NCBI GenBank assembly: GCA_965277805.1
Contig: OZ255842.1
Coordinates: 1,952,001-2,016,000 of the forward strand
Origin: Candidatus Lustribacter sp.
GTDB lineage: Bacteria > Vulcanimicrobiota > Vulcanimicrobiia > Vulcanimicrobiales > Vulcanimicrobiaceae
Direction: 5' to 3'
Length of the DNA: 64,000 nucleotides
Shown here: positions 6,137-38,600 of the stretch, in pieces
How positions within the stretch are numbered: the stretch's first letter is position 1
Layout: each line of letters opens with the position of its first letter
The notes under the pieces: generated by a model
What the model saw: the letters and a program-made list of their open reading frames with translations, nothing else
The model's database searches: none
Told to the model about the DNA's origin: nothing
Program-made: the position numbers and the translations under genes

Positions 6137-6173
6137 CGGCGACGACCCGGAACCGGCATTTGCATGTAGTTTC

Positions 6174-6207
6174 CCCTGGAAACATGACAGCCCTGGAAAC
6201 ATGACAG
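6174..6207. repeat. Perfect 17-bp tandem duplication CCCTGGAAACATGACAG x2 in the RND/response-regulator divergent promoter
   Basis: Copies at 6174-6190 and 6191-6207. Each contains CTGTCAT on the minus strand. Confidence 0.9.
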
Positions 6208-6218
6208 GAGAATGAACG

Positions 6219-12035: not shown

Positions 12036-12104
12036 GTCCCCAGGATGTACGCGAGATTTCTTAACAGCAGTTGATGAATATCTTAAGAAAACATCATCAA
12101 GCGG

Positions 12105-12138
12105 CTGTCATGTTTTGTTCATCGAAAAGCGATAGCAT
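12105..12138 (+). promoter_or_regulatory. Pho-box-like site CTGTCAT-GTTT-TGTTCAT followed 10 nt later by a -10 element TAGCAT
   Basis: Half-sites at 12105-12111 and 12116-12122, TAGCAT at 12133-12138, GTG start at 12147 with no Shine-Dalgarno. Confidence 0.55.
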
Positions 12139-12146
12139 CCCTGTTT

Positions 12147-13049: not shown

Positions 13050-13084
13050 GATGTGATAGTTCCACTTTCGCGGAAAATCGCGAG

Positions 13085-15900: not shown

Positions 15901-15945
15901 TCCGTTGTTGGCCAGACGGCTGAATTGTCTTCGTCGATCGAGCGC

Positions 15946-17841: not shown

Positions 17842-17866
17842 ACTGCGCCATCCGGATAGCTGAGCG

Positions 17867-20222: not shown

Positions 20223-22253
20223 TTATCGATCGAGCTGCCAAGCGTTCCAATAGTCGCGGCCGAGCGGGTTCGGCGTAAAGGCGGCGAGCGCGTTGCGCAC
20301 CACGTACGTTCGCCGTTCGAACCCGAGCGGAACGACCGGCAACTGCTCGATGAGGATGGCGCCCGCGTTCCGGTAGAACGGCGCGCGGGTTGACGGATCG
20401 TACGCCCGGGCGCCGCGCGCTTCGTCGCGGTCGTACGCGGCGTTGCAAAAGAACATGGAGTTGCCGCCGCCTGGCGGCGTTGCGGCGCACCCGAAGAGGT
20501 ACGAACGATCGGGATCGAGCGCCGGCGACCATGATGTCAGCGCTAGGTCGTAGTGCGCGCTCTCGAGCACGCCGCCACGGTCTTTCGGGCCCCAGAATTC
20601 GGCTTCGGTATACGAGCGAATGTGCACGGTAACGCCCGCGGCTTCGAGTTGTGAGGCGATCTGGATTGCGGCGCTTGCGCTGTTGCGCCAGGCTGATGCG
20701 ATCGCGAGATCGACGGTGAGATGTTCCGGCCGCAATGTTGCCGCTGCCGCCGTTGCGTTGTGCGCCGGAAGCCGCTGCGTCGTGCGGTACGTTGGATCGA
20801 GTTGAACGGAGTCGGTGGGCACGAGCGTGCCGCGATAGACGGCCGACGCCAACTTCTGCCGATCGATCGCCATAGCCATCGCGCGTCGCACGCGTATGTC
20901 TTGCAATGCCGGGGAGTGAAGGTTGAACTGCAGGTAGTCCACGACGTTTGTGATGCGGCTTAGGATGTGCGTGTCAGGCACCGTGCGCGCGACGTCCACG
21001 CCGAAGCCGGTGACTTCGGCTACGTCGAGTTCGCCCGTGCGTACTTGCACCAAACGCGTTTGCGCATCCGGCACGATCGCTACGTCGACGCGCGGGCTTG
21101 CTGCCGGACCACGCCAGTAGTAGGGGTTGCGTACGAATGATAAGCGTTGGCCGCGCTCCCAGCGCAGCAGACGGAACGGTCCGAGGCCGACGGGGTCCGT
21201 GTCGAGCGAACTTTGGTCGAGCGATGCGTACTTCGCTGCGATGTGGCGCGGCAGAATTGCGAACGGATCGTTTGCGCCGAGCGTGAGGAATGATGAGATG
21301 AAGGGCGCCGACGGCTGCTTCAGTTGCACGACGAGCGTGTCGGGTCGCGGGGCGGACCACCTCGCGACGTCGGCCACGGCCGAGGTGTCGGGGACTGCAG
21401 TCCGGGGATTGCGCAGCGCGTCGATCGTGAAGCCGACGTCGCGGGCGTCGAAGGGGGCGCCGTCGCTCCAGCGGCCGGTGCGGATGCGGTAGGTGATGCG
21501 GCGCCCGTCGGGTGAGATGCCGCCGTTGGCGCGGGTCGGGAGGGCGCGGGCGCGGTCGGGAATGAGACGGCCGCGGTCGTCGACGAGGAACAGGTAGCCC
21601 TGGGTGAGCGGCGCCAGCAGCCAGCCGAACGGGGTATTGCGGATGGTGTTGAGCGAGTTGGGCTCGTCCTCGAGGACGAGAGTGGGGGGCCGGGAGAGCT
21701 CAGCCGCGGCAGCCGGCGTGATCCACGACGTCTTCTTGGGGAGGTAGTGCTGTTCGGCGGCGGCCATTTCGGCGGCGATGTTGGGGTTGAAGCCGAGCCA
21801 TTTGGCGCGCTGGTTGCCCTGCGGGTCGATGACGACCATCGAGGGGAAGGCTTGGATGCCGAAGGCTTCGGCGGCGGTTTGGTCCGGATCGAGGGCGACT
21901 TTTTCCATGGGGTGGGTGCGGGCGAAGGCGGCGACCAGCGGGGCCGGCTCGCCGACGTCGACCGAGATCACGTCGACCTCGGGGTGGGCTTTGGCGAAGG
22001 CCTGGATCAGGGGGATCGACTGCTGGCACGGCTCGCACCAGGTGGCCCAGAAATCGAGATAGGTCAGGCGGCCGTGCTGGCGGTCGATCGCGAAACGGCC
22101 GCCGTCGAGCGTGGTGAGGGCCACCGGCGGGGCCGGGACGATGGCATTTTCGGCTAGCCGGGGCGCGACGAAGAACTCGAAGAGCGCGAAAAGGACGATC
22201 AGGGCCGCGAGGACGTCGAGCCCGCGCGCGACCCACCGGCGAGCCGAAGACAT
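20223..22253 (-). CDS. TlpA-like thioredoxin fused to a family-5 ABC substrate-binding domain
   Basis: N-terminal TM, LDFWATWCEPC, then the SBP_5 motifs NGGISPDGRRITY, WSDGAPFDARDV, GLGPFRL, RNPYYWRG. Confidence 0.85.
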   Translation of the reverse strand: MSSARRWVARGLDVLAALIVLFALFEFFVAPRLAENAIVPAPPVALTTLDGGRFAIDRQHGRLTYLDFWATWCEPCQQSIPLIQAFAKAHPEVDVISVDVGEPAPLVAAFARTHPMEKVALDPDQTAAEAFGIQAFPSMVVIDPQGNQRAKWLGFNPNIAAEMAAAEQHYLPKKTSWITPAAAAELSRPPTLVLEDEPNSLNTIRNTPFGWLLAPLTQGYLFLVDDRGRLIPDRARALPTRANGGISPDGRRITYRIRTGRWSDGAPFDARDVGFTIDALRNPRTAVPDTSAVADVARWSAPRPDTLVVQLKQPSAPFISSFLTLGANDPFAILPRHIAAKYASLDQSSLDTDPVGLGPFRLLRWERGQRLSFVRNPYYWRGPAASPRVDVAIVPDAQTRLVQVRTGELDVAEVTGFGVDVARTVPDTHILSRITNVVDYLQFNLHSPALQDIRVRRAMAMAIDRQKLASAVYRGTLVPTDSVQLDPTYRTTQRLPAHNATAAAATLRPEHLTVDLAIASAWRNSASAAIQIASQLEAAGVTVHIRSYTEAEFWGPKDRGGVLESAHYDLALTSWSPALDPDRSYLFGCAATPPGGGNSMFFCNAAYDRDEARGARAYDPSTRAPFYRNAGAILIEQLPVVPLGFERRTYVVRNALAAFTPNPLGRDYWNAWQLDR

Positions 22254-25388: not shown

Positions 25389-27032
25389 TCAAATATCCAG
25401 TTCCCAAGGGTTCCAAATCTCAGTCACGGCATGGGCCGGATGAAAGTTCTTCAAGTCGCTGTTGTAAACGTTCACGTTACGTACGAACCAGAGCGTCTCG
25501 AAGGGCCGGTCGGCAACGAGTAAGGTGGATATCTCGGCGTAAGCGCGTGCGCGCGTCGCCTTGTCATTCGATGCAATTGCCGCATTTTCGGCTGCCTGAA
25601 CGCGCGGATTGCAATAGCGCGAAATATTCCAGCCGGCGGGCGGAAATTGGTCGCAGCGATATAGGATCGAATCGTCCGGATCGACGCCATTGTACCAGCG
25701 GGTGAGCGCGACGTCCCATTTGCCCGTCAGCAGAATCCCGCCCTGAGCATAGCTCCCTCCAAACACGGGCGGGAGGTAATCCTTAACGATGAGCTCGACG
25801 CCGATTTGGTACCACCAACGTTGCGCTTCCAAGACGCTCGTCGCGGCAGCAACGTTGCCCGTTTCGTACGCCATGGTCAACGATAGCCGCTGGCCATCCT
25901 TGCGCCGAATGCCGTCGGTACCGACGTGCCACCCCGCAGCATCGAGCAGACGGCGGGCGCGACCGGGGTCGTAGGGAGCGAGCGGAATATGAGCGCTCCA
26001 GCCGTTGTAGGGCGCCTGATCGCCCTCCCCCGGAATCTGTACGTCGTGGGTCACGTTTTCAATCAAGGCGCGCCGATCGGTCGCAAGTACGAGCGCCTCT
26101 CGAACGCGCAGATCCGCAAGGATGGGGTTCTTCAAGTTGAAGTCATAGAACACGTACTGGTTGTCGGGGTTCAATTCGACCGTCGTGCCGGGAAGCCGGC
26201 GATATGACGCAATCAGCGACTGGGAGGCGCCCATCTCCAAGTCCGCCTCGTGCGTTTGGAGCTTGGTCAGGATCGTATTCTCGTTCGGAACGATCTCATA
26301 GTCGACTTCGTCGAGCTTCGGGCGGCCGCGCCAATAATCCGAATTGGCAACAAAGCGGATGTTCGACCCGCGATCCCATTTCACGACCTTGAACGGCCCG
26401 GTCCCGATCGGCTGCTGGTTGTAGGGGATCCGATTCATATCCGGATAGCGCGCAATCAGATGTTTCGGGAGCACCGGATACGTCTCGGCAGACATCGTGA
26501 AGAACGTCGCGGTGAACGGCGCCCAAGCGTGTTTGAGATGGATCACGATCGTCGCATCGTCGATTCTATCGATTCGCTCGATCAATTCGTAGCCGCTTCG
26601 CGATTGCACCGCATTTTTCGGGTTCATCACGGCTTCATAACTGAAAATAACGTCGTCGGCGGAAAACGGGACGCCGTCCTGCCAGCGCACACCGCGGCGC
26701 AAATGATACGTTATCGTTTTGCCGTCCGTCGAAATGCCGTGGTTTGCGACCGTCGGCAAAACCGTTGCGAGTTCGGGCACGAATCGATTGCGATCGTTCC
26801 AGTTGAAGAGATAGCCGGCCCAGAACATCGAGACGTGCACGTCGGTCTGAAGGTAGCCGACGATCGGGTTCAGCGAGTCCGGCTCCTCGGAATCGACGAT
26901 TCGCAGCACGTGCGGTTTCGTCCACGAGTGGCGAGCGCTGCCCGCGGCCTCGATCCTTGCACAGGCGGACAGTAGCAAGAGCACGCCCATCACGACGCCC
27001 GCGCGGAAGATCGTGCCGGCGACGGCATTCAT
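25389..27032 (-). CDS. Peptide/nickel-type (family 5) ABC substrate-binding lipoprotein
   Basis: Lipobox LSAC, EPDSLNP, WQDGVPFSADDV, IGTGPFKV, YWRGRPKLD. Confidence 0.9.
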   Translation of the reverse strand: MNAVAGTIFRAGVVMGVLLLLSACARIEAAGSARHSWTKPHVLRIVDSEEPDSLNPIVGYLQTDVHVSMFWAGYLFNWNDRNRFVPELATVLPTVANHGISTDGKTITYHLRRGVRWQDGVPFSADDVIFSYEAVMNPKNAVQSRSGYELIERIDRIDDATIVIHLKHAWAPFTATFFTMSAETYPVLPKHLIARYPDMNRIPYNQQPIGTGPFKVVKWDRGSNIRFVANSDYWRGRPKLDEVDYEIVPNENTILTKLQTHEADLEMGASQSLIASYRRLPGTTVELNPDNQYVFYDFNLKNPILADLRVREALVLATDRRALIENVTHDVQIPGEGDQAPYNGWSAHIPLAPYDPGRARRLLDAAGWHVGTDGIRRKDGQRLSLTMAYETGNVAAATSVLEAQRWWYQIGVELIVKDYLPPVFGGSYAQGGILLTGKWDVALTRWYNGVDPDDSILYRCDQFPPAGWNISRYCNPRVQAAENAAIASNDKATRARAYAEISTLLVADRPFETLWFVRNVNVYNSDLKNFHPAHAVTEIWNPWELDI

Positions 27033-27177
27033 GTCAGCATTAGTGTAACGAAGAGCAGCGGTTAGGGCATTGTCCAAAAGAACAAGTGGGTTCGCGGCCG
27101 TTGTACCGGAATGTCTCCCAGAAAAACATCCATAAAATTGCTTGCACGCCCTGCAAAAAGCCGCGTATAGTGGACGG

Positions 27178-28098
27178 GTGGACACACTCGTTTCGTCTGC
27201 TCAAGTCCCAACCATCGACGTCTCGGCACTCTTCAGCGGGCGCACGTCGGATCTCGAAGCGGTTGGCCGCGAGATCGGCGCCGCGGCTAAATCGATCGGC
27301 TTCTTCTCGATCGTCAACCATGGCCTCGAGCGCAACGTCGCCGAGGTCTTGGCGGAGGCCACGCGGTTCTTCGCTTCGCCGCTTGAGTTGAAAGAAAGCG
27401 TCGCGATCGAAAGCTATTTCAATGGCTATTCGCGGCTCGACCGGGAGAACGGCGAGCCGCACGAAGCCTACGACATCGGGCCCGACATTGCCGCCGACGA
27501 TCCCGACCTGAGTTCGGGCCGCTCGCTGTTTACGCCACGGCGGTGGCCCGATCTGCCCGGCTTCCGCGAACGGCTCTCGGAGTACTACGACCGCGGCCGT
27601 GAGCTGATCGTCCAGCTCCATCGCGCGATTGCGGTCGATCTCGGAGCCGACGTCGAATTCTTTACCCCGTATTTTACGCGCATGGTAAATCTGCGGATGC
27701 TGCACTATCCACCGCATCCGGAGGGCCGCGCAGGCTGGGGAATCCGGCCGCATACCGACTTCGGAAATCTGACGCTCCTGGCACAAGACAACTACGGCCT
27801 CGAATTGCAAACCCGCGACGGCTCGTGGCTGCCCACCGAAGCGCGAACCGACGCACTCATGTGCAATATCGGCGACTGTCTCATGCGCTGGAGCAACGAT
27901 ACGTATGTTTCGACGCCGCACCGCGTTCTGAACAGCACGGGGCGCTCGCGCCACTCGGTGGCTCTGTTCGGCGACGTCAACGGCGATGCGGTGGTCTCGT
28001 GTCTCGACTCATGCCGGGGACCCGGACGTCCGCCGAAGCATGAACCGATCTTGTTCTCGGACTTCGCGTCCTCGCGATTTTCTTCGGGCTACGACTGA
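27178..28098 (+). CDS. IPNS-family Fe(II)/2-oxoglutarate dioxygenase (type A)
   Basis: VPTIDVS, GFFSIVNHG, LRMLHYP, HTD, CNIGD, TPHRV, RHS. Confidence 0.9.
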   Translation: MDTLVSSAQVPTIDVSALFSGRTSDLEAVGREIGAAAKSIGFFSIVNHGLERNVAEVLAEATRFFASPLELKESVAIESYFNGYSRLDRENGEPHEAYDIGPDIAADDPDLSSGRSLFTPRRWPDLPGFRERLSEYYDRGRELIVQLHRAIAVDLGADVEFFTPYFTRMVNLRMLHYPPHPEGRAGWGIRPHTDFGNLTLLAQDNYGLELQTRDGSWLPTEARTDALMCNIGDCLMRWSNDTYVSTPHRVLNSTGRSRHSVALFGDVNGDAVVSCLDSCRGPGRPPKHEPILFSDFASSRFSSGYD

Positions 28099-29372
28099 GG
28101 CATCGCTCCAAAGTCGACGCGATGGGTGGCGTCGCCGAGGACGACCCGCGACTCGACGGCCGGCGACTCGGCAATGATCGCTCCCCGGCGCACGACGAAC
28201 AGCCGGTTGGCGCGCAGGCGAATTGCTTCGATCGGGTCCGACGCCTGCAGCACGACGAAGTCGGCATTTTTTCCCGGCTCGAGACCGTAGCCATCAAGAC
28301 CCAGCGTGCGCGCGCCATTGGCGGTGACGGCCATAAACGCACTGCGCATCTCGTCGCGCCCGGTTAAGTGGCCAACGTGCACCGCCATGTGCGCAACCTC
28401 CAGCATATCGTGCGATCCGAGACTGTACCACGGATCCCGCACGCAGTCGTGGCCGAAGGCGACGTTGATTCCGAGCGCGTTCATCTCTCGCACTCGGGTC
28501 ATGCCGCGGCGCTTTGGATACGTATCGTGGCGCCCTTGGATCACGATGTTGATCAACGGGTTGGCGACCGCATTGAGGCCGGCCTCGAGCATCAGCGGCA
28601 GCAGCTTGCTTACGTAATAGTTGTCCATGCTATGCATCGAGGTGAGGTGAGACCCCGTTACCCGGCCTTGGAGTCCGAGCCGCACGGTCTCTGCGGCCAG
28701 CGTCTCGACGTGCCGGGAGAGCGGGTCGTCGGTCTCATCGCAGTGCATGTCGACGCGCAGACCCCGGGCCTCGGCGATCTCGCACAGTTCGCGTACCGAG
28801 GCGGCACCGTCGGCCATCGTGCGCTCGAAGTGCGGGATCCCGCCCACCACGTCGACGCCGCGGTCGAGCGCCCGCAGCAGATTGGCGCGCGCGTTCGGGC
28901 TGCGGAGGAAGCCGTCTTGCGGGAAGGCGACGAGCTGCAGATCGATGTACGGCGCCATCTCGCGGCGCACGTCGAGCAACGCATCGACGGCCACGAGCGT
29001 ATCGTCGCAAATATCGACGTGCGTTCGAATCGCGAGGTTGCCGCGCGCAATCGCCCAGCGGCACAGCGCGTGCGCGCGTTCGCGGACGTCCTCGGCCGTC
29101 AGCAGCGGCTTCTGTTCGGCCCAAATCGCAATGCCTTCCAGCAAGGTACCCGACTCGTTGAACCGCGGCCGGCCGATGCTCAGCGTGGCGTCCATGTGGA
29201 AATGGCTGTCGACGAAGGGCGGAGTGACGAGGCGCCCGCGAGCGTCGATCTCGCGGGGGGCGCTTGCATCGAGGTGCGGGCGGATCTCGACGATGCGGTC
29301 ACCGCTCACACCGATATCGATGTCGCAGCGTCCGTCCGGAAGGTTGGCGCCGCGAACGATCAGGTCGAGCAT
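28089..29372 (-). CDS. codA: Cytosine deaminase-like metal-dependent amidohydrolase
   Basis: PPFVDSHFHMD, GTLLEGI, VAFPQDG, GGIPHFE, DMHCDETDD, FGHDCVRDPWY. Confidence 0.85.
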   Translation of the reverse strand: MLDLIVRGANLPDGRCDIDIGVSGDRIVEIRPHLDASAPREIDARGRLVTPPFVDSHFHMDATLSIGRPRFNESGTLLEGIAIWAEQKPLLTAEDVRERAHALCRWAIARGNLAIRTHVDICDDTLVAVDALLDVRREMAPYIDLQLVAFPQDGFLRSPNARANLLRALDRGVDVVGGIPHFERTMADGAASVRELCEIAEARGLRVDMHCDETDDPLSRHVETLAAETVRLGLQGRVTGSHLTSMHSMDNYYVSKLLPLMLEAGLNAVANPLINIVIQGRHDTYPKRRGMTRVREMNALGINVAFGHDCVRDPWYSLGSHDMLEVAHMAVHVGHLTGRDEMRSAFMAVTANGARTLGLDGYGLEPGKNADFVVLQASDPIEAIRLRANRLFVVRRGAIIAESPAVESRVVLGDATHRVDFGAMPQS

Positions 29373-29374
29373 AG

Positions 29375-30337
29375 CTACGTCCTCGCGATGAGCGTGTTGT
29401 TGAGGCGTCCCCGCAGGTAATCACCGGCAAGAACCGGTTCGAACAGCGGCCGTTCGCTGCCCCTGGCGCCGGGAAGACAGGCGACCTCCGTCTCGTTGTC
29501 GGGCTCGCAGAAAAACGCGATGGAGTAGCGCGACTTCCCGACGCGCGCGTCGGAAGGCACCGCGACGCGGTGTTGCGTCGAGCGAAATTCGAGGTTCGTC
29601 CACTGTTGCATCAGGTCGCCGATGTTAACCAGCATCGTGCTCGGAATCGACGGTGCCGAGAGCCAACGGCCGTCGGCCGCCATTACCTCGAGTCCACCGC
29701 TCGGATCCTGAAAGAGCAGGGTCATTGTCCCGAAGTCCGTATGCGAGCCGACCCGCATCTGGCCGTCCAATGGGCTGCGGGCGACCGGCGGATAGTGCAG
29801 CAAACGCAGCGTGCTGTTCGTGCCATGGCGGGAAACGAAATGGCTCTCCGGTAACCCGAAGCCGAGCGCGAAGGCGCGTAAGATTTCCGCGGCAACCGCC
29901 GCGCATCGTTCATGAAATGCCGCGAACGCATCGACTGATGCCCGGACCTCCTCGGGAAGTTCGTTATTGTTAGCCGCGGCCGGGAACGCCGCGCCGATGT
30001 AGCCGCCGTCCTGAAAGATGTCGAACGCCTCCTTGATGTCGCTCGGCTTCTTTGCATCTTCGTGCTCGCGCCCTTGCGGGACGTAGCCGCACTTGAAGCC
30101 GGCCTTCACACGATGCGCCTCGATCAGCGGTTCTTTAAGAGCGCTCGGCAAGGCAAAGAACGCCGCCGATTGCGCGAAGACGTCGTCGACCGCAGCCTGC
30201 GCGATACCCGCACCGGAGAGGTAGATGAAGCCCAGCGTCGCGCTGATTTCGCGAATCCGCCGCGCGATCGCATTTCGCTCGGCGGGCGCAGCGCTATAGA
30301 ATCCGGCGAAGTCGACGACCGGAATTTCGGTGTCCAT
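29375..30337 (-). CDS. IPNS-family Fe(II)/2OG dioxygenase (type B)
   Basis: IPVVDF, DIKEAFD, LRLLHYP, HTD, NIGD, TQHRV, RYS. Confidence 0.9.
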   Translation of the reverse strand: MDTEIPVVDFAGFYSAAPAERNAIARRIREISATLGFIYLSGAGIAQAAVDDVFAQSAAFFALPSALKEPLIEAHRVKAGFKCGYVPQGREHEDAKKPSDIKEAFDIFQDGGYIGAAFPAAANNNELPEEVRASVDAFAAFHERCAAVAAEILRAFALGFGLPESHFVSRHGTNSTLRLLHYPPVARSPLDGQMRVGSHTDFGTMTLLFQDPSGGLEVMAADGRWLSAPSIPSTMLVNIGDLMQQWTNLEFRSTQHRVAVPSDARVGKSRYSIAFFCEPDNETEVACLPGARGSERPLFEPVLAGDYLRGRLNNTLIART

Positions 30338-30338
30338 G

Positions 30339-33137
30339 CTAGCGGCCGACGTGAAATCGGAGCTGCATGCGAACGGTTCGCGGTGGTGTCGGCAGCAGGG
30401 TCGACGTTCCCGTCGTCAGGCCGGTGGCCGAACCCTCGACGAGTGGAACGCCCTGATAGGAGTAGGGCAGGTTGTAGAAGTTGTTCGTGTTGAGAAGGTT
30501 CTCGATTGCAACTTGAAGCTCGACCGAACGCGTGAGCGGCTGGCGCAGGGTTAGGTCGACCTGCGCAAGCGGCGGCTGATAGTAGGAGTTGTTTTTGCCT
30601 TCGTAATCGACGCCCAATGCAGCGTAGCCGCCGCCTTTCCAGGTGTAGGTCAGTTGACCATACCCCTTCAGATACGGGATGCAGATCGGGGTGTTAGGAC
30701 CCTCGATGCTCGTGCCGCATACCTGCACCCCGTTAGCAGGCGCCGATGGGCCGCCCGCATACACGGAGGCCGGTATCTGCGAGAGGTACGCGCGCTCGGC
30801 CGCGAGCGCGATGTTGTAGCCCAAGCCGGTGCGGGGAGCGTAGGCGTACTTGAGCGTCGCGAGTTGCATCAGCATCTGCGCGACGTTGATCGTTTCGTCG
30901 ATCGTCTCACCGGCCTGCATTGCCGGGAAGCTCAAAGGTTCGAACACATCGTGAATGATCGTATTCTGCAGGTCGATGGAGAGAACGGATCCGTTGTGAA
31001 ATCGCTTGTCGACGCCCGCATCGAAAGCGATGCTGCGCTCGGGAGCGAGAAACGGATTCTTCTCGATTAACAAGCTTTGATAGTTCGTGCCGGCGGCCGG
31101 CGGAAGGTACGAAGGTAATCCGCTCACTTGACCGGCGTACGGAAACGTTTCCGAGGTTCCGTAAGCGAACCGGTACGACACATCGGCGGTCGGACGGTAC
31201 GCGAAGGCGACGTGCGGATCGAAACGCGCGACGGTCCGATCCAGCGGGGCGAGGTTTGCGGTTTGGGTCGCTTGGTCGATGACGGTCTGGAAGCCGCCGA
31301 GCTTCCAGTCGGTGTTATACAGGCCGAAATTGATCGTCAGATTATGGGTCGGATGCAACTCGCCGGTCAACGAGAGCGTGGAGTAACGTATCGTCGTGTC
31401 CGGAACGGTCACATTGGCCGGTCCGCTGATATAGGCGAACGTATTGGTGGCGTGAGTGTCATAGGTGATCGTCAGGGAGCTATCGCCCATCGGGTGGATG
31501 AGCGATAACGTCCCGCCGTAAAGGTTGTCCGTTTCAAAGCTCACGTACGGTGGCTGAAAGCACTCCTCTTGTCCGTTCACAACGGCAACGGTATTACCGG
31601 GGCTATTGATTTGATAGTACGCGCTGGGATTGAAGCCGACCCCGCAATACTGTTCGAACGCGTTGCCGCCACCCGGCAGGCTCGTGCCGCCGTTCGGGAT
31701 CGGCGTGCCGGGCGCAATCGACGGCACCGTCCCGGGCGGCGAAAAGAACTGCGGGTAGGCCCCTTCGCCGCCGCCGTCGATCTGGCCGGGCCGAATCGTT
31801 CCTGCGTAGGGCCGAACGAGCAACGTGTTGTTGCCGAACGTCGTGCGCAGTTGCCCGTCGAAAATGGGCTGGTCGTTATAGACCGCGACGCCCGGATACC
31901 AAGCGTACGATGGAATCGCCTTTCCAACCAGCGAGTTATACGCCGGATTGTTACACTCGAGCGGCGCCGACGGCAGACAGGCAACGACCGTCGTGATGCC
32001 CTGATAGAGCCCGTACGACACGCCCTGCGGCACGTAACCGCCTTGGGTGCCGACGAAGCCGACCTCGAACGACGTCGCATCGGAGAAGTCGTATTTCAGC
32101 TTCAAGATCTCGCCGCGATTGAAAAACGACGCGCTCGTATCGCCGCAGAATTGAATGATCCCGACCGACGCAGGTGTGTTTATGGCGGACGGGTTGTCGG
32201 GCAGAACAGCGCATTGGTTGCCATGAAAATAGGGTCCGTTGTTGCTGCCATACCCGAGGCCGAGGACGTACGAGGCTTTGCCCGCCGACCCGGTCGTAAG
32301 CAAATTCGAATACTGCGAGCCGTAGTTGTCCGTGCCGACGACGAGTTCGGCCGTCGGCTTCTTCGTGTAACCGGGGGTGATGAGATTCACCGTACCGGAG
32401 ACGGCCAGGTTCGCAAACGGGGTCGTGTTGCCCGGGCCGGACTGCGCCTCCGCGCCGCCGACGAGATAGGACGGAAAATACTCGCTCAGCCAGACGCCAT
32501 ATTGTCCGAGTGCAACCGGATGACCGTCGATCAGCGTTTGCGTTTCGTATGGCTGAGCACCGCCGACAACGATCGCGGTGTCCGGTTCGCCGCTCGTCCG
32601 GGCAATGGTCACGTTCGGCAAATGCTGCAAGACATTGTTGATCTCGGGATTGGCAAAACTACGGAAGGCCGCGCCGGGAAGGTAACTGAGCGTCGACGTG
32701 CCGACGTTGATCGCGCCGCTACCGCCTTGCGAGCTGGACGTGACGCTGCCGATCGTGCGCAGCGAGGAGAGATCGGCTTGCGTCATCGTCACCGTCAGCG
32801 GCAGCGTCTGCCCGGCGACCACAGCAAGGGTGTTCAGCGAGACCGGTTGGTAACCGCTCTTCGCAACGGTCAGCTGGTAGAGGCCGGGCCCCAGCGTTAG
32901 GATGAACGTACCGCTCGCATCGGTGCTTGTACTCGCTTGCTGTGGCCCCGAGACGGAGACCGTCGCACCGGCGACCGCGTCGCCCGCCGGCGTTCTCACG
33001 GTGCCCCCGATGCCGGCCGCCGTCGCTTGTGCTCCGGCCGGCAATGGAGGAATGCACAGCGAGAACATGACGAGCAGCGCGAGCACCCGCAGACTGAGCT
33101 GCTGAGGGTTTCGAGTACGTGCAGCGGTCGAAATCAT
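30339..33137 (-). CDS. TonB-dependent receptor with N-terminal carboxypeptidase-regulatory-like domain
   Basis: ATG 33137 with GGAG, signal peptide, IGGTVRTPAGDAVAGATV, LIDGHP, GTVNLIT, NPFLAPERS and a beta-barrel. Confidence 0.85.
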   Translation of the reverse strand: MISTAARTRNPQQLSLRVLALLVMFSLCIPPLPAGAQATAAGIGGTVRTPAGDAVAGATVSVSGPQQASTSTDASGTFILTLGPGLYQLTVAKSGYQPVSLNTLAVVAGQTLPLTVTMTQADLSSLRTIGSVTSSSQGGSGAINVGTSTLSYLPGAAFRSFANPEINNVLQHLPNVTIARTSGEPDTAIVVGGAQPYETQTLIDGHPVALGQYGVWLSEYFPSYLVGGAEAQSGPGNTTPFANLAVSGTVNLITPGYTKKPTAELVVGTDNYGSQYSNLLTTGSAGKASYVLGLGYGSNNGPYFHGNQCAVLPDNPSAINTPASVGIIQFCGDTSASFFNRGEILKLKYDFSDATSFEVGFVGTQGGYVPQGVSYGLYQGITTVVACLPSAPLECNNPAYNSLVGKAIPSYAWYPGVAVYNDQPIFDGQLRTTFGNNTLLVRPYAGTIRPGQIDGGGEGAYPQFFSPPGTVPSIAPGTPIPNGGTSLPGGGNAFEQYCGVGFNPSAYYQINSPGNTVAVVNGQEECFQPPYVSFETDNLYGGTLSLIHPMGDSSLTITYDTHATNTFAYISGPANVTVPDTTIRYSTLSLTGELHPTHNLTINFGLYNTDWKLGGFQTVIDQATQTANLAPLDRTVARFDPHVAFAYRPTADVSYRFAYGTSETFPYAGQVSGLPSYLPPAAGTNYQSLLIEKNPFLAPERSIAFDAGVDKRFHNGSVLSIDLQNTIIHDVFEPLSFPAMQAGETIDETINVAQMLMQLATLKYAYAPRTGLGYNIALAAERAYLSQIPASVYAGGPSAPANGVQVCGTSIEGPNTPICIPYLKGYGQLTYTWKGGGYAALGVDYEGKNNSYYQPPLAQVDLTLRQPLTRSVELQVAIENLLNTNNFYNLPYSYQGVPLVEGSATGLTTGTSTLLPTPPRTVRMQLRFHVGR

Positions 33138-33243
33138 AGTCCAACTCCACGAGCATTCAGAGACAATGGAGAACTGACCGGAACGCAAGAGCGCGTTTCA
33201 GTTCACCCGCTTCGACCGTACCATACCGGAAAGAGGCGCCGCA

Positions 33244-33290
33244 TAGACAGATGTCTAGCGGAATCTGACCTGCATACACTCGGAATGTCT
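33244..33290. promoter_or_regulatory. Palindrome TAGACA-GA-TGTCTA plus CGGAATGTCT element, candidate GntR operator
   Basis: Palindrome at 33244-33257. CGGAATGTCT at 33281-33290 is also present at 27107-27116 in the SBP/dioxygenase promoter region. Confidence 0.4.
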
Positions 33291-33292
33291 TG

Positions 33293-33324
33293 AAAGAAAA
33301 CAAACGCGGCGAACCCTCGCGGCG
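33293..33324 (-). terminator. Probable intrinsic terminator after the permease gene
   Basis: Minus strand CGCCGCGA-GGGT-TCGCCGCG (one mismatch) followed by TTTGTTTTCTTT. Confidence 0.5.
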
Positions 33325-33328
33325 ATTC

Positions 33329-34675
33329 TCATTTGCGTGACTCGTACGCTACGGCTGCCGAAGCGGTGCGGGGCATGTGCCAGGCCAGATAGAGCCCGGC
33401 CGCTGCGAAAAACCCGACGAGATAGCCGATGTCGGTATTGCCGAGTAGTCTTGCAATCGGGCCGGTGTAGACCGAAGTCGAGGAGAACAACGCGATCGTC
33501 AACGCCGTAACGATCACGAAGATGGTCGCGCCGCTGCCCCAACCGCGCACGTAGGTACCTTCGCCGCGGCGGAGCCACCAATCGGCGAGCACGATTGCAA
33601 CCCACGGTGAGATCCAATATACGAGCAGCACCAGGTAGTTTGAGTACAGGCTCGCAAACTGACCCGCCCCAGCGACCGCGAGCAAATAGCCGAGACCTGC
33701 GGTGACGATGGCCGAAATCCAGCGCGGCAGTTTTACGCCGGCCGACATGAGGCTGTAGGCGGCTGTGTTGTCGTTCTGCGAGTTCACCGCGACCGAGGAA
33801 ATCGCCACCGCGAAGAGTCCGATCGGCGCAAAGCCGCCCATGAGGATCGTTATGCTTTTGATCAATGCGGTCGGCGAGGTGTCGGGAATCCGGCTCGCCG
33901 TTAGAAACCCGCACAGCTCGATTGCCGTGCCGGAAGCGAACATCCCCAGAAACGCAAGGGCGAAGATGGTCCGTGACGGCGTAGTTTTCGGTAGATAGCG
34001 CGTGTAATCGGCCGCGTAGGGTGCCCAGCCGATGTTATAGCTTCCGATCAGCGATAAGGCGAGCAGAAACGCGGCGAAGGTTACCGGTTGCGCCGGCGCT
34101 GCGATGCTGCCGCCCCTGGCGACGGCCATGGCGCCGACGATCCCAAAAACGACCAGCAGCGTATACCCGAGGTATTTCTGCAACAACTGCACGACGTCGT
34201 GTCCGTAGATACTGGCGATCAGCTGGAGCAACGCGAGAAGCGCAAGTGCGGCCCAAAATGGGGCCGAGAAGCCGGTCAGCGCCACGAGCGCGACCAGGGC
34301 GATCGTCGAGGGAACATTGTTCACCGCGTCCCAGCCGACGCAGCACAGCCAGTTGATAAACGATGGAAGGCGCGTTCCGGCTTGGCCGAAAGCGAAGCGC
34401 GAGTCTTCCATCTGCGTGAGCCCCGTCTTGGGGCCCATGACGGCACAGAACGCGACCGGTAGCGAGCCGAGCAAATTTCCGATGACGATCGCTGCCAGGC
34501 CCCACCAGAAACCGAGCCCGAGCGCCGCCGCCAGAACCCCGATCACCCAGCCCGATGCCCCGAGATTACGAGAAAAGTGACTCCAAAACACATGCTCGAG
34601 CGGCATCGTTTGCTGGTCTTCACTTACCGCATGCTCGACGACCGCGGTCCCGCTGCTCTCTACCCGGAGCTTCAT
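33329..34675 (-). CDS. Purine-cytosine permease (NCS1 family)
   Basis: About 12 TM segments, MGPKTGLTQM..SRFAFG, GWDAVN, GWAPYAADYTRYLP, WISPW. Confidence 0.88.
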   Translation of the reverse strand: MKLRVESSGTAVVEHAVSEDQQTMPLEHVFWSHFSRNLGASGWVIGVLAAALGLGFWWGLAAIVIGNLLGSLPVAFCAVMGPKTGLTQMEDSRFAFGQAGTRLPSFINWLCCVGWDAVNNVPSTIALVALVALTGFSAPFWAALALLALLQLIASIYGHDVVQLLQKYLGYTLLVVFGIVGAMAVARGGSIAAPAQPVTFAAFLLALSLIGSYNIGWAPYAADYTRYLPKTTPSRTIFALAFLGMFASGTAIELCGFLTASRIPDTSPTALIKSITILMGGFAPIGLFAVAISSVAVNSQNDNTAAYSLMSAGVKLPRWISAIVTAGLGYLLAVAGAGQFASLYSNYLVLLVYWISPWVAIVLADWWLRRGEGTYVRGWGSGATIFVIVTALTIALFSSTSVYTGPIARLLGNTDIGYLVGFFAAAGLYLAWHMPRTASAAVAYESRK

Positions 34676-34682
34676 TGCGGCG

Positions 34683-35645
34683 TCACGCCTTTTCAGCGTG
34701 AGCAACGGGGTGATAAGTCTCTCCCAAGCGGCGCTCGAGATACTCGGCATAGGTGATCGCCGCGTATTTCGGCGGCAGCTCCGGCGTGCTGCACTGCGGC
34801 ATGCATTCGATCAGCGCGTCACCGTTCGGGTCGCCGAAGAATGCGACCGAATAGCGCTCGCGCGCGGACGTGTTGACGACGCGGTGCGGCGTCGATACGT
34901 AAACGTCGTTGGTCCAGCGCATCAGCGAATCGCCGATGTTGCATACGAAGGCCCCGGGCATCGGCGCAACCGAGATCCACCGGCCGTCACGTCCTTGAAC
35001 CTCGAGACCACCCACGTCATCCTGCATCAGCGCCGTAATGTTGCCGTAATCCGTATGCGGCGCCGCACCGTAAAGGACGTCGTCGAACGCGACGGGGTGC
35101 GGCGGGTAGTGCAGCAGGCGCAGCACGCCGAGCGTGCGATCGAGCCGCGAATCGAAGAAATCCGAGGGCGCGCCGAGGTCGACGGCAACCGCGCGGTGCA
35201 GGTCGATGCAGAGCGCGTGCTGCGCGGCAAAAAACGCCAGCATCGGCTCGCGAAAAGGCGTCAGTTCGGGCCACAAGTTCAATCCGTGGAATGGCGTACC
35301 CGCGAGCACGTCCGGGTCGTCCGGCGCAAGATCGCGGCCCATGTTATAGGACTCTTTGAGATCGCCGGGCCGGTCCGGGTGCAGTTGCTCGGCACTCATC
35401 CGCGAGTAGCCGTAATAGTGCGGCGAGCGCTCGAACGCGATCGCTTCCTTGACCGCGTCGGGCAGGGCAAAAAAGGCCCGGGTTACGGCGAAGACCTCGT
35501 CACACAAAGGCGCTGGAATCCCGTGATTGACGACCATGAAAAACCCGATCCCCCGCGCTGCCGCGCCGACCTCGCGCGCAACCGTGGCGAGTCCGGTCGC
35601 GCCGGATCGGATCGGGGAGAGGTCGACGACAGGGATCTCGGGCAC
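34683..35645 (-). CDS. IPNS-family Fe(II)/2OG dioxygenase (type A')
   Basis: GTG start with GGAG, IPVVDL, GFFMVVNHG, DLKESYN, HTD, CNIGD, TPHRV, RYS. Confidence 0.9.
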   Translation of the reverse strand: MPEIPVVDLSPIRSGATGLATVAREVGAAARGIGFFMVVNHGIPAPLCDEVFAVTRAFFALPDAVKEAIAFERSPHYYGYSRMSAEQLHPDRPGDLKESYNMGRDLAPDDPDVLAGTPFHGLNLWPELTPFREPMLAFFAAQHALCIDLHRAVAVDLGAPSDFFDSRLDRTLGVLRLLHYPPHPVAFDDVLYGAAPHTDYGNITALMQDDVGGLEVQGRDGRWISVAPMPGAFVCNIGDSLMRWTNDVYVSTPHRVVNTSARERYSVAFFGDPNGDALIECMPQCSTPELPPKYAAITYAEYLERRLGETYHPVAHAEKA

Positions 35646-35821
35646 GCTAAACTCCAAAGGCTGCCTGCAAGCGAGCCGCTTTTCTACGTTAAACCGAGCC
35701 GACGACGAGGGCTTTAGCCATTTGGAAGTATGGACGAGCCTGAAGTACACCGTACTTGTTTGGAAACGATACAATCAGGGCTGCGTTACGCCTTGTCCGG
35801 CCCGCCGTGTGGAGGGCGAGA

Positions 35822-36808
35822 TTGCAAAGGAACCCCGGCACGAATATCCACTCGGACATCCCGATCGTCGACTTCGCGCACTTCAACAGCCAAGATGCGA
35901 AAAAACGCGCGGCCATCGCGGCGCTCATCTGCGGCATCGCGCGTTCGTTGGGCTTCGTGTATCTGCGCGGCATCGCGATCACCCAAGACGAGGTCGATCG
36001 TATGTTCGCACGGATGGCGGCATTCTTCGATCTGCCGATCGCCGCCAAGCGACCTCTGGCACGCGCGCGCCCGGCAGGCGTGACGTTGCGCTGCGGCTAC
36101 GTCCCGCGGGGTCGCGAACACGAAGATTCATCGACCCCGAGCGATATCAAGGAAGCCTTCGATCTCTATCGCAGGGATAGCTATTACCGGGTTGCCTTCG
36201 CGTGCTCGCGCGAGGACGAAGCGCCGTTTACGTCCGAGATTCAACAGCTCGTCGATGATTTCGCCGCTTTTCACCACCGCTGCTCGCTCGTGGCGAACGA
36301 CGTGTTGCGCGCCTTTGCGCTGGACTTCCGGCTGCCCGAATCCTACTTCGTCGAGCGCCACGGACAGAATAACATCCTGCGCCTCCTGCACTACCCGCCG
36401 ATACCGGAGCGGGTACTGACCGGGCAAATGCGCGTCGGATCGCATACCGACTTCGGCAGTCTCACGCTACTTTTCCAAGACCCCAGCGCCGGCCTCGAGG
36501 TGTTGTCGGCGGGTGGGCGTTGGCTGAAGGCGCCGTCGCTTCCGGGCACCGTGCTCATCAACATCGGTGACCTCATGCAGCAGTGGACGAACTGCGGCTT
36601 CCGCTCCACCCCGCACCGCGTCGATGTGCCCAGCGGAGAGGGAGCGCTGCGCTCGCGCTACTCGATTGCCTTCTTCTGTGAGCCGAATAACGAGACCGAA
36701 GTCGCCTGTCTGCCCTCAGTGCAAAGCGCGGGCGATCCGCTCTTCGTGCCGGTGATTGCCGGCGAACACCTCACCGCGCGCCTCGACCGCACCTTGATCG
36801 CTAAGTAG
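35822..36808 (+). CDS. IPNS-family Fe(II)/2OG dioxygenase (type B')
   Basis: TTG 35822 after GGAGG, IPIVDF, DIKEAFD, HTD, NIGD, TPHRV, RYS. Confidence 0.9.
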   Translation: MQRNPGTNIHSDIPIVDFAHFNSQDAKKRAAIAALICGIARSLGFVYLRGIAITQDEVDRMFARMAAFFDLPIAAKRPLARARPAGVTLRCGYVPRGREHEDSSTPSDIKEAFDLYRRDSYYRVAFACSREDEAPFTSEIQQLVDDFAAFHHRCSLVANDVLRAFALDFRLPESYFVERHGQNNILRLLHYPPIPERVLTGQMRVGSHTDFGSLTLLFQDPSAGLEVLSAGGRWLKAPSLPGTVLINIGDLMQQWTNCGFRSTPHRVDVPSGEGALRSRYSIAFFCEPNNETEVACLPSVQSAGDPLFVPVIAGEHLTARLDRTLIAK

Positions 36809-37475
36809 AAGTAAGCTCGGCGAGCAGTTGATCGTGCCCGTGCAGGATATGGCTTCGCATGAGCGCGACGGCGTCCTCAGTCCGTCGCTCGCGCAGTGCG
36901 TCGATCAGCCGCTCGTGTTCGACGGCGAGATCTTCTACCGAGCCCGAGAGCTGGGTCGTCAGCCGGACCGATAGCTGGAATTCGCTCAAAAGCGCCGCGT
37001 ACGCCAATTGCAACGGTAGGTTACGGGCGAGTGCGACGATCAATCGGTGAAAGGCGAGGTCGGCTTGAATGGCGCTGTTGAGTTCTGCCGACTTGGCGCT
37101 TGCGCGGAGCGTCCGCACCGCGGCGAGTAACTGCAGGAAATCCCCCTCTCCCGCGTAGCGCGCGAAGCTACGCACCGCGAGTTCCTCGAGCGCCAGCCGA
37201 AAGTCCACGAGTTGTTGCAGCCGTTCGGCCGCAAGCGGAGCAACGTAGCGGCCGCGATTGGGCTGGCTTATCAGCACGCCCTCCGACTCGAGCCGGCTCA
37301 GCGCTTCCCGAACCGGGCTGCGGCTCACGCCGAGCATGCCCGCGATGTCGACCTCAACAACACGGTCGCCCGGTCGCAAAGCACCGGTCGCGAGTTGCTC
37401 CCGAATCAGTTGCGCGACACGTTCGCTGGTCGAACGTCGCGCAAGCGATGCGTCTGCCCCGGCGCCCTGCTTCAT
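36801..37475 (-). CDS. GntR-family regulator with FCD domain
   Basis: LRPGDRVVE..IA..LGVSRSPVREALSRLE, RLALE, DLAFH, EHERLIDAL, MRSHI. Confidence 0.92.
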   Translation of the reverse strand: MKQGAGADASLARRSTSERVAQLIREQLATGALRPGDRVVEVDIAGMLGVSRSPVREALSRLESEGVLISQPNRGRYVAPLAAERLQQLVDFRLALEELAVRSFARYAGEGDFLQLLAAVRTLRASAKSAELNSAIQADLAFHRLIVALARNLPLQLAYAALLSEFQLSVRLTTQLSGSVEDLAVEHERLIDALRERRTEDAVALMRSHILHGHDQLLAELTST

Positions 37476-37496
37476 GGGCCGCCTTTTCGCCGCCGA

Positions 37497-38600
37497 ATGC
37501 GTTCACCCCACCGGTGGCGAAACCGTTTTGGCTTGCTGTTCGAACCGCTTACCCTGCGGAGCGTCACGCTCCGTAACCGCATCGTCGTCTCGCCGATGTG
37601 CCAATATTCATCCGAAGACGGCTTCGCGACCGACTGGCATCTCGTGCATCTCGGCAGCCGCGCCGTTGGTGGGGCCGGACTCGTGTTCACCGAGGCGGCG
37701 GCGATCGAACCGCGCGGGCGCATCTCGCCGCTCGATCTCGGTATTTGGCTCGACGAGCACGTGCCGATGCTGCAGCGCATCAACACGTTCATCGAAGCCC
37801 AAGGCGCGATTGCCGCGACGCAACTCGCGCATGCGGGACGTAAGGGTTCAGTCGGGCCGCCGTGGACGACGCCGCGCGGCTGGGTGACGCCCGATCAGGG
37901 CGGCTGGGAACCGATTGCGCCGACGGCTGAAAAGGATATGCCGTATTATCCGCTGCCGCACGCGCTCAGCACGGATGAGATTGCGCTGCTCGTGCGGCAG
38001 TTTGCCGATGCAGCGCGGCGTTCGGCTGACGCCGGGTTCAAGATTACCGAGATCCACGCCGCGCACGGATATCTGCTGCACGAGTTCATGTCGCCGCTCA
38101 GCAATCAGCGCGACGACCGCTACGGTGGGTCGTTCGAGAACCGCATCCGGTTTTTGCTCGAAACGACCGATGCGGTGCGTGCGGTGTGGCCCGAGAGCAA
38201 GCCGCTCTTCGTGCGCATTTCTGCCACCGATTGGGATGCCGGCGGCTGGACGATCGAGGATTCCATTACGCTTGCGAAGATTCTCAAGTCGCGCGGCGTC
38301 GACGTGATCGATGTTTCGAGTGCGGGGATCGGGCGCAGTCCGCTCGAGAGCGCGGCACAGGCGCCGCTCTATCAGGTACCGTTTTCGGAACGCATTCGGC
38401 GCGAAGCCGATGTGCTGACCGTCGCGGTCGGATTGATCACGACCGGCACGGAGGCCGAGTCCGTGCTCGAATCCGGCGGCGCCGACCTCGTCGCGTTAGC
38501 GCGCCGTTACCTCGGCGATCCGTACTTCCCCCATCGCGCAGCCACTCAGATCGGTGAGGATCTCCCGTGGCCGCGGCAGTACCGGCGCGCTACGCTCTGA
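37497..38600 (+). CDS. NADH:flavin oxidoreductase (old yellow enzyme, NamA/YqjM type)
   Basis: LRNRIVVSPMCQYS, QLAHAGRK, EIHAAHGYLLHEF, YGGSFENR, WPRQYRR. Start is ATG 37497 or TTG 37533. Confidence 0.9.
   Translation: MRSPHRWRNRFGLLFEPLTLRSVTLRNRIVVSPMCQYSSEDGFATDWHLVHLGSRAVGGAGLVFTEAAAIEPRGRISPLDLGIWLDEHVPMLQRINTFIEAQGAIAATQLAHAGRKGSVGPPWTTPRGWVTPDQGGWEPIAPTAEKDMPYYPLPHALSTDEIALLVRQFADAARRSADAGFKITEIHAAHGYLLHEFMSPLSNQRDDRYGGSFENRIRFLLETTDAVRAVWPESKPLFVRISATDWDAGGWTIEDSITLAKILKSRGVDVIDVSSAGIGRSPLESAAQAPLYQVPFSERIRREADVLTVAVGLITTGTEAESVLESGGADLVALARRYLGDPYFPHRAATQIGEDLPWPRQYRRATL

Follow-up and report, generated by a model that had tools for sequence, protein, structure and literature searches.

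Why should four Fe(II)/2-oxoglutarate (2OG) dioxygenase genes be interleaved with genes for a cytosine deaminase, a nucleobase permease and a TonB-dependent outer-membrane receptor? This arrangement is found in Candidatus Lustribacter sp., a soil bacterium of the Eremiobacterota that has not been cultured (assembly GCA_965277805.1), within a stretch of 64,000 nucleotides of contig OZ255842.1 (positions 1,952,001 to 2,016,000, forward strand) that we analysed as a whole and refer to as the window; unless stated otherwise, coordinates below are those of the window. The dioxygenases of this island fall into two types, which we call DioxA and DioxB. We propose, with evenly balanced confidence, that the island serves as a GntR-controlled uptake system and upper pathway for pyrimidine bases, and possibly nucleosides, that need oxidative tailoring. 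The conserved pairing of DioxB with the deaminase and the nucleobase genes that accompany DioxA at other loci carry this proposal.

Modified bases, including 5-methylcytosine and N-methylated or hydroxymethylated bases, are released in quantity by dead cells, and to our knowledge little has been established about how bacteria recycle them. We likewise know of no substrates for the large bacterial family of IPNS-like oxygenases, to which the island enzymes belong.

Results

Four dioxygenases of two types

Open reading frames were called in all six frames, and gene identities were assigned by profile scoring with Pfam and NCBIfam, which recovered in place all ten genes listed by a first-pass annotation of this DNA. 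Its further claim of four dioxygenases with intact HxD...H and RxS motifs also holds. Both Pfam domains score above their gathering thresholds in 4/4 proteins (DIOX_N, 58–108 bits with a cut-off of 27.3; 2OG-FeII_Oxy, 73–97 bits with a cut-off of 23), and the HTD...H iron triad, the RxS motif for the C5 carboxylate of 2OG and the stretch R-x-L-H-Y-P-P are present in all of them. The enzymes form two paralogue pairs. DioxA1 (27142..28098, + strand; DIOX_N E 2.9e-20, 2OG-FeII_Oxy E 3.2e-20) and DioxA2 (34683..35774, − strand; identified by Pfam) are 45% identical and belong to a PaIPNS-like clade, while DioxB1 (29375..30337, − strand; Pfam, and PDB 5c3p at E 6.8e-46) and its paralogue DioxB2 (35756..36808, + strand; Pfam, and 5c3p at E 6.9e-46) are 60% identical; identity between A-type and B-type enzymes is 29–34%. 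DioxA2 probably starts ~28–45 codons into its open reading frame, and its alignments with relatives begin at residue 29–46. The database protein corresponding to DioxB2 (P0021) has 328 amino acids.

The 5.53-Mb genome holds 13 members of the IPNS-like dioxygenase family, and the presence of four of them inside 10.5 kb is far beyond chance by our own rough estimate (~1e-5, not obtained from any tool). Together with 67 matches to Amidohydro_2 (PF04909), the 13 IPNS-like matches are large expansions for 5.5 Mb; both families are typical of aromatic and heterocycle catabolism.

Relationships within the family were examined in a maximum-likelihood tree of 48 members, from which the fungal thymine 7-hydroxylase (T7H) is absent and in which other paralogues, on long branches, have poorly resolved positions. 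Whether their context is of pyrimidine or purine type, the DioxA copies all fall into one clade (support 97/97), and a separate clade (100/100), nested among cyanobacterial proteins of unknown function, takes in every DioxB copy. Among solved structures, Anc357 and PaIPNS are the best matches for DioxA (for DioxA2, 9ovh at 241 bits and 6jyv at 193 bits, respectively), with T7H ranking third for DioxA2 and lower for DioxA1. A query of the ESM Atlas with DioxB1 returned nothing beyond generic family clusters.

DioxB is paired with a cytosine deaminase in relatives

DioxB1 lies directly upstream of the gene for a CodA-type cytosine deaminase (28089..29372, − strand; NF005748, 760 bits with a cut-off of 438). 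To count this pair we used the 12 loci that have both a B1-type or undifferentiated DioxB and downstream sequence. A CodA-type gene comes immediately after DioxB in 11 of these 12 (L009, L010, L011, L090, L091, L092, L094, L096, L097, L098 and L099), a count of which the independent part is nearer six or seven because L009/L091/L092, L010/L090 and L098/L099 are near-duplicates. The cluster can be as small as in L096, a reduced form consisting of NCS1, DioxB and CodA genes.

The richest context is that of L098, which runs DioxB, CodA, PreT-like, PreA (NF006183, 660 bits with a cut-off of 335), dihydropyrimidinase (TIGR02033, 612 bits with a cut-off of 393), CN-hydrolase and a canonical NCS1 permease (312 bits to PF02133), followed by a divergently oriented class-III aminotransferase gene. 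Judged by its gene content, the DioxB–CodA pair of this locus heads a predicted complete reductive pyrimidine-degradation operon, and the left half of L094 is arranged in the same way. In L094 and L098/L099 the pair thus forms the first part of reductive pyrimidine catabolism (PreT/PreA, dihydropyrimidinase, beta-ureidopropionase, aminotransferase), a pathway for which we know of no dioxygenase step. The genome of Candidatus Lustribacter sp. carries its own reductive operon at 1631447-1639176 (71–91% identity), 340 kb from the island and without DioxB–CodA. Because this lower operon lies elsewhere without the pair, and the only CodA orthologue of the genome is the one in the island, the island reads as an upper pathway.

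The deaminase lacks an aspartate that bars 5-methylcytosine

The deaminase matches E. coli CodA structures at E ~1e-114, with an alignment across the whole catalytic core, and matches 4r7w at E 6e-103; together with 4R85 and 4R88, we take this entry to be a structure of the Klebsiella 5-methylcytosine deaminase Kpn00632. The SHFH, FPQDG, HCDE, GSH and GHD motifs of the island enzyme align with the metal and catalytic counterparts of CodA, which are HxH, Gln156, His214/Glu217, His246 and Asp313. The deaminase has a different residue in place of the discriminating Asp314 (or Asp315, depending on the numbering), reading GHDCVRDPW where CodA has GHDDVFDPW. According to the accessible part of PMC6186785, this second aspartate bars 5-methylcytosine, its place is taken by serine in Kpn00632, and its change to alanine gives CodA activity on 5-methylcytosine.

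The island enzyme is therefore a strong member of the CodA family in which the aspartate is swapped for cysteine, as it is for serine in the Klebsiella protein. Since Asp314 is replaced, the deaminase should take cytosine and also 5-substituted cytosines such as 5-methylcytosine, although this activity, in contrast to that of Kpn00632, is predicted from the protein sequence. Among its 120 best relatives (72–100% identical, from several phyla), the position is cysteine in 114 and serine in 6, and the whole subfamily probably has the same substrate range. We considered Cys314 as an adaptation specific to this locus and rejected the idea, as GHD[C/S] is a subfamily-wide trait (120/120). The arginine of GHDCVRDPW, beside the active site, is private to this genome, the residue being methionine in 118 of the 120 best relatives, including those that are 92–94% identical.

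DioxB bears a modest resemblance to fungal thymine 7-hydroxylase

T7H (5c3p) is the top solved match for both DioxB1 and DioxB2, at 160 bits against 136–145 bits for the next structures. A model of DioxB1 (predicted local distance difference test score 88.8) likewise has 5c3p as its best Foldseek match (template modelling (TM) score 0.83, 33% identity), followed by CC_0200 (TM score 0.79). The fungal enzyme acts on a free pyrimidine base, taking thymine to 5-hydroxymethyl-, 5-formyl- and 5-carboxyuracil, and has the fold, the family and the iron and 2OG ligands in common with DioxB. As described in the accessible part of PMC4787775, its substrate pocket includes Arg190, Tyr217 (where Phe or Trp is allowed) and Phe292, and Asn87 is the sole side chain with a direct bond to the base, at O2 of thymine. 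In our alignment, DioxB1 keeps Arg190, Phe292, Tyr324 and Arg328, has a phenylalanine for Tyr217, the aromatic residue that follows HxD, and has a glutamate for Asn294. Glu122 of T7H may correspond to an invariant aspartate if the IKEAFDI block is set against DIKESYEI, which is our own reading and differs from the HMMER alignment.

The two systems differ in their genomic neighbours. In Neurospora and Aspergillus, the iso-orotate decarboxylase (IDCase) gene comes after the T7H gene (accessible part of PMC6305744). This neighbour has no counterpart at the island, and bacterial DioxB is instead paired with a cytosine deaminase and, in relatives, also with the reductive pathway. An Amidohydro_2 gene near DioxB–CodA in L098 was considered as a candidate IDCase and set aside; its sole PDB match is the uncharacterised BB4693, and it has no homologue in the genome of Candidatus Lustribacter sp. 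A literature search found no published bacterial thymine hydroxylase.

DioxA also occurs with purine-type genes

Paralogues of the island receptor (50% identity), NCS1 permease (56%) and DioxA (50–57%) lie together at 4.685–4.693 Mb of the same genome. By Pfam and NCBIfam, this twin cluster (L149, G000:C1:4679001-4698000, genes at ~5733–18241 of the locus) has the order PhyH, TonB receptor, adenosine-deaminase homologue (TIGR01430, 280 bits with a cut-off of 217), DioxA, NCS1, DioxA; the second DioxA gene is followed by those for an esterase, an NMT1-type binding protein, a luciferase-like oxygenase and a xanthine/uracil permease. A second genome of the genus (G368, L176) repeats this order. 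Six of eight further DioxA loci carry a homologue of a nucleobase permease, of adenosine deaminase, or both: adenosine-deaminase homologues occur in three of the eight, NCS1 in three, a xanthine/uracil permease in three and a TonB receptor in four. None of the proteins of our search panel has a homologue in the remaining two, L180 and L181.

Counting the twin, paralogues of the island receptor at 45–50% identity are encoded in three other clusters of the genome that contain deaminase or amidohydrolase genes. The TonB-linked locus L150 (G000:C1:760001-780000) comprises genes for a molybdopterin enzyme, a P450, two adenosine-deaminase-like proteins, a DioxA-like protein, TauD, an NMT1-type ABC transporter and a TRZ/ATZ-like amidohydrolase. 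A second TonB-linked locus, L151 (G000:C1:1094001-1110000), encodes a PRK07583-type cytosine-deaminase paralogue (597 bits), a second amidohydrolase, and Amdase-family and polysaccharide-deacetylase-family proteins, and is flanked by McrBC and GmrSD restriction genes.

Homologues in other phyla were surveyed in 75 further loci (L013–L087), mostly from Alpha- and Betaproteobacteria. Of these 75 loci, 19 encode a binding-protein homologue of the Bmp/PnrA type, an ABC-transporter component; an isochorismatase-family gene is present in 17, and a hydantoinase- or dihydropyrimidinase-like gene in 13, the latter directly upstream of the dioxygenase gene in Paracoccaceae. In L019, for instance, Pfam gives the order Bmp ABC transporter, isochorismatase, dioxygenase, CodA-like amidohydrolase. 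The tree places the proteobacterial homologues in a clade different from both DioxA and DioxB, and these loci support a tendency at the level of the family, not orthology. An orthologous group of IPNS-like dioxygenases from Alpha- and Betaproteobacteria (L017-L050, L059 and L082) stands out among them by its position beside a Bmp/PnrA transporter and an isochorismatase gene.

The island is rare and recurs in three gene orders

Ten island proteins and two flanking proteins were compared by tblastn with all 79 species-representative loci and with those 12 of 59 metagenome loci that have at least 57% identity. The closest loci belong to Eremiobacterota metagenome-assembled genomes (MAGs), with DioxB1 identities of 84% in Candidatus Lustribacter sp., 84% in an Eremiobacteraeota MAG and 71% in a Vulcanimicrobiota bog MAG. 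The full set of SBP5, DioxA1, CodA, DioxB1, TonB receptor, NCS1, DioxA2, DioxB2 and GntR genes recurs in three gene orders, represented by L009/L091/L092, by L010 and L012 (also L090 and L095), and by L011; in the first of these, the receptor gene is relocated between DioxB2 and DioxA2. The dioxygenases thus co-occur with codA and NCS1 in relatives, which is the recurrence that the first-pass annotation had wanted to see checked by a gene-neighbourhood search. In L011, the genes matching DioxA2, DioxB1, CodA and the TonB receptor are broken up over different frames in a frameshift-like manner, most likely through assembly errors.

Among 401 genomes sampled from the phylum, DioxB is present in two, including that of the island itself (E <= 1e-60), and DioxA in 11, all of one family (E <= 1e-70). 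Old yellow enzyme (OYE), secretin and prolyl oligopeptidase genes were considered as members of the island and rejected, being conserved only in L011. The OYE-family flavin oxidoreductase gene (37212..38600, + strand), which the first-pass annotation had counted as part of the cluster, is therefore better described as a neighbour conserved in the closest relative. Its Oxidored_FMN domain (Pfam) begins at residue 109, its real start is near 37497, and the OYE matches of L009 and L012 cover only a spurious N-terminal extension antisense to GntR.

Transport proteins, layout and regulation

The TonB-dependent receptor (30339..33188, − strand) has an N-terminal CarboxypepD_reg domain (58.4 bits), a barrel scoring 54.5 bits (cut-off 27) and a Plug domain that stays just under its cut-off (23.6 bits; cut-off 23.9) with Pfam; its paralogues in L150 reach 47.9 bits with the Plug model. 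The NCS1-family permease (33329..34750, − strand), on the CodB/CytX-like side of the family, passes PF02133 (97.1 bits, cut-off 23.5) and reaches 107 bits with TIGR00800, below the cut-off of 353; it has no sequence match in the PDB at E <= 0.001, and by these scores it is classed as a divergent family member. The family-5 solute-binding lipoprotein (SBP5; 25389..27185, − strand; Pfam SBP_bac_5 E 8.5e-79) probably starts at ~27032 (MNAVAG...), where the N-terminus reads as carrying the lipobox LLLLSAC. It is an orphan, with no ABC permease gene adjoining. SBP5 adjoins DioxA1 in L009, L010, L011 and L091/92 and lies directly before DioxB2 in L100.

On the minus strand, the genes for DioxA2, NCS1, the TonB receptor, DioxB1 and CodA look like one operon, because they abut or overlap. 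DioxA1, DioxB2, SBP5 and GntR are predicted to be separate transcription units served by two divergent promoter regions. The G+C content is 0.60–0.61 within the island and 0.64–0.67 in its surroundings.

The presumed repressor of the island is a GntR/FCD transcription regulator (36801..37475, − strand; Pfam GntR 67 bits, FCD 74 bits), whose gene adjoins DioxB2 in L009, L011, L012, L091/92, L095 and L100. The divergent SBP5/DioxA1 promoter region contains an operator-like imperfect palindrome of 19 bases, ATTGTCCAAAAGAACAAGT (27069..27087, + strand), which is a conserved footprint amid diverged flanks in the island, L009, L010, L011 and L091. A second operator-like site, ATTGTATCGTTTCCAAACAAGT (35754..35775, − strand), in the divergent DioxA2/DioxB2 promoter region, lies inside a conserved block before DioxB2 in the island, L095, L011 and L009. 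Both sites have the same half-sites, with a spacer that is 3 bases longer in the second. A joint pattern, derived from these two sites, has two matches in the window against 0.02 expected and four in the whole genome; the other two, at genome positions 260679 and 1754732, have no homologues of our panel's nucleobase genes nearby. The shared motif could fit a single GntR-controlled regulon, and we treat it as a lead only, because the pattern was derived from the two sites of the island itself.

Three further features of the window lie outside the island, all on the minus strand. An open reading frame of 1556 residues (1814-6484) encodes a full AcrB/ACR_tran domain followed by outer-membrane efflux protein (OEP) repeats; either an RND pump is fused to its outer-membrane factor here, or two genes are read through without a separating stop codon. 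A second CarboxypepD_reg TonB-dependent receptor gene (9318-12035) lies directly upstream of a phosphoesterase-family gene (8260-9321), the two spanning 8260-12035. At its N-terminus, the family-5 solute-binding protein encoded at 20223-22253 bears a thioredoxin-like/AhpC-TSA domain, an unusual fusion.

Discussion

The link between these dioxygenases and nucleobase metabolism is borne out by co-occurrence: the DioxB–CodA pairs in 11/12 loci, the operon of L098, and the association of DioxA with permeases, deaminases and TonB receptors all point in the same direction. The first-pass annotation had gone further and proposed that modified bases are imported, oxidatively demethylated and deaminated. 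Its nucleobase part stands, whereas the demethylation part does not follow from our data, as T7H is only 33% identical to DioxB1, which lacks Asn87, and the island is without a linked decarboxylase gene.

How could the island work? We infer all substrates and reactions of the following route. The substrate would pass the outer membrane through the TonB-dependent receptor, possibly with assistance from the SBP5 lipoprotein, and would cross the inner membrane via the NCS1 permease. In the cytoplasm, the DioxB–CodA pair, as the conserved core, would turn cytosine-type into uracil-type compounds, and the deaminase should accept 5-methylcytosine. DioxB would most probably oxidise a substituent on the pyrimidine ring. 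Our preferred guess for this substituent, which we offer tentatively and would not call probable, is the C5 methyl or hydroxymethyl group, by analogy with T7H; this target is favoured because DioxB resembles T7H and the deaminase tolerates C5 substituents. A two-gene cassette leading a catabolic operon would be explained nearly as well if an N-methyl group were removed ahead of deamination, as from N4-methylcytosine. Since the DioxA clade also sits in purine-type clusters, DioxA may target something common to purine and pyrimidine substrates, such as an N-methyl group, a sugar or a ring C–H. Products such as uracil and thymine would then enter the reductive pyrimidine pathway encoded 340 kb away.

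Several observations weigh against this proposal. One DioxB locus, L093, has no CodA gene, and the neighbour of DioxB there is a fragment of a vanillate-demethylase-like gene. The margin by which T7H leads proteins of unknown function is small (160 against 136–145 bits; TM score 0.83 against 0.79). The T7H residues kept in DioxB are also present in DioxA1 and DioxA2 and are therefore generic and non-discriminating, while Asn87 corresponds to Lys82 in DioxB1, in a column that is variable across an alignment of 18 DioxB sequences. No IDCase is linked to the island: PF04909 is absent from the window, and the 67 matches elsewhere in the genome are unscreened for likeness to IDCase. A T7H step is also not obviously needed, because the reductive pathway already takes both thymine and uracil. 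Cys314 of the deaminase says nothing specific about the island, being common to a whole widespread subfamily. The nearest DioxB relatives outside the phylum, from cyanobacteria (41–47% identity), have no consistent nucleobase context; in L014 (Nostoc, 8259-15061) the DioxB-like gene is followed by an FAD oxidoreductase (DAO) and a urea-type ABC transporter (Peripla_BP_5, 557 bits), and in L013 it adjoins the gene for a protein with a 5'-nucleotidase C-terminal domain. Finally, it is unusual for free bases, being so small, to be served by a TonB receptor and a family-5 solute-binding protein.

One alternative is that the imported compounds are nucleosides. Fungal pyrimidine deoxynucleoside 1'- and 2'-dioxygenases offer a model in which imported (deoxy)nucleosides would be hydroxylated by DioxA at C1' or C2' of the sugar, the base being freed or converted and then handled by CodA and DioxB. 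For a TonB receptor, a nucleoside is a more fitting cargo than a free base, and DioxA, found with both purine-type and pyrimidine-type deaminases, would recognise something common to their substrates. The twin deaminase passes the model for adenosine deaminase, which acts on a nucleoside, Pfam and NCBIfam reveal no nucleoside hydrolase or phosphorylase family among the island genes, and the proteobacterial homologues adjoin Bmp-type ABC transporters, of a nucleoside-binding family. However, these Bmp-associated proteins belong to a different clade from DioxA, NCS1 and xanthine/uracil permeases carry mostly free bases, and the substrate of CodA is the base, not cytidine. We consider a nucleoside route unlikely.

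Could the dioxygenases hydroxylate the ring itself? Fungal XanA, of the TauD family, hydroxylates xanthine, and an analogous chemistry would lead from hypoxanthine to xanthine and urate in the twin cluster and from uracil or cytosine to hydroxylated pyrimidines in the island. The exactly two DioxA genes after the deaminase gene of the purine twin would fit two successive hydroxylations, and the sister clusters contain more 2OG oxygenases (PhyH and TauD). But XanA belongs to a family other than that of the island enzymes, we know of no DIOX_N-class member that hydroxylates an aromatic ring carbon of a base, and the DioxB–CodA pairs of relatives stand in a reductive, not an oxidative, operon, which makes ring hydroxylation quite unlikely in our view.

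A substrate that is no nucleobase at all seems improbable to us. Candidates would be other N-heterocycles or guanidino compounds, such as creatinine or N-methylhydantoin, a peptidyl-cytosine antibiotic, a triazine or a pyrimidine natural product of plant or microbial origin, imported via SBP5, the TonB receptor and NCS1. The label 'cytosine/creatinine deaminase' is in use for the subfamily of the deaminase, and AtzC is structurally related to the deaminase (E 3e-49). On the transport side, the usual ligands of family-5 solute-binding proteins are peptides, nickel and opines, and the island NCS1 is very divergent; NCS1 carriers have been described to carry metformin, a cation that is not a nucleobase (accessible part of PMC13390362). 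Yet the deaminase is 72–77% identical to a cytosine-deaminase subfamily conserved in many phyla and keeps the metal and substrate residues of CodA, the DioxB–CodA pair of relatives shares an operon with PreA and dihydropyrimidinase, and both an adenosine-deaminase homologue and a xanthine/uracil permease are encoded in the twin cluster.

That the dioxygenases act on amino acids or peptides, like EFE and the arginine hydroxylases, and merely happen to adjoin a CodA–NCS1 unit for cytosine salvage is highly improbable: EFE-like enzymes belong to the same family, SBP5 and prolyl oligopeptidase genes adjoin, and the Nostoc homologues lie beside a urea-type ABC transporter, but the linkage survives three gene orders and reduced two- and three-gene forms, the prolyl oligopeptidase is conserved only in L011, and DioxA is again found with nucleobase carriers and deaminases elsewhere.

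A literature search found no described bacterial cluster that combines a 2OG dioxygenase with CodA and NCS1, in agreement with the first-pass annotation, whose author knew of no characterised bacterial cluster with this layout. The nearest described TonB system for nucleic-acid nutrients seems to be the ddbABCDEF DNA-utilisation locus of Bacteroidales, which includes a TonB-dependent transporter within a locus for nucleic-acid-derived nutrients and has deaminated bases as end products. It is built quite differently and belongs to a different phylum: as far as the accessible part of PMC12478041 describes it, ddb has nucleases and a SusC/D-like pair, and no dioxygenases, deaminase or NCS1. What would be new at the island is a nucleobase catabolic cluster with an oxidative front end of orphan IPNS-like oxygenases.

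For the IPNS-like family, the closest solved relatives of DioxA2 are PaIPNS (PA4191, 6JYV) and Anc357 (9OVH), with which it shares a bacterial IPNS-like group. Anc357 is a reconstructed ancestor of PaIPNS-like proteins, for which the accessible part of PMC12329707 speaks of a yet-to-be-identified substrate, and the nucleobase context found here provides a substrate lead for this group. It is possible, though we hold it doubtful in its full extent, that IPNS-like Fe/2OG dioxygenases, the PaIPNS group included, represent an unrecognised class of enzymes on free bases or nucleosides that are paired with deaminases and remove or oxidise C5-methyl, N-methyl or sugar groups, allowing modified bases from dead biomass to be reused. 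The island would then be the first bacterial counterpart of the T7H route and, with its twin, the first case of TonB-dependent nucleobase import outside Bacteroidota.

In conclusion, the island, its purine-type twin and the proteobacterial loci with nucleoside transporters provide the IPNS-like family with a defined substrate class for testing. They also suggest an oxidative first stage of nucleobase catabolism in soil bacteria, and the use of TonB-dependent receptors by some outer-membrane-bearing bacteria to take up small, nitrogen-rich nutrients of this kind. Eremiobacterota are known mostly from metagenome-assembled genomes from peat and soil, and the system described here would add a trait to this poorly known group.

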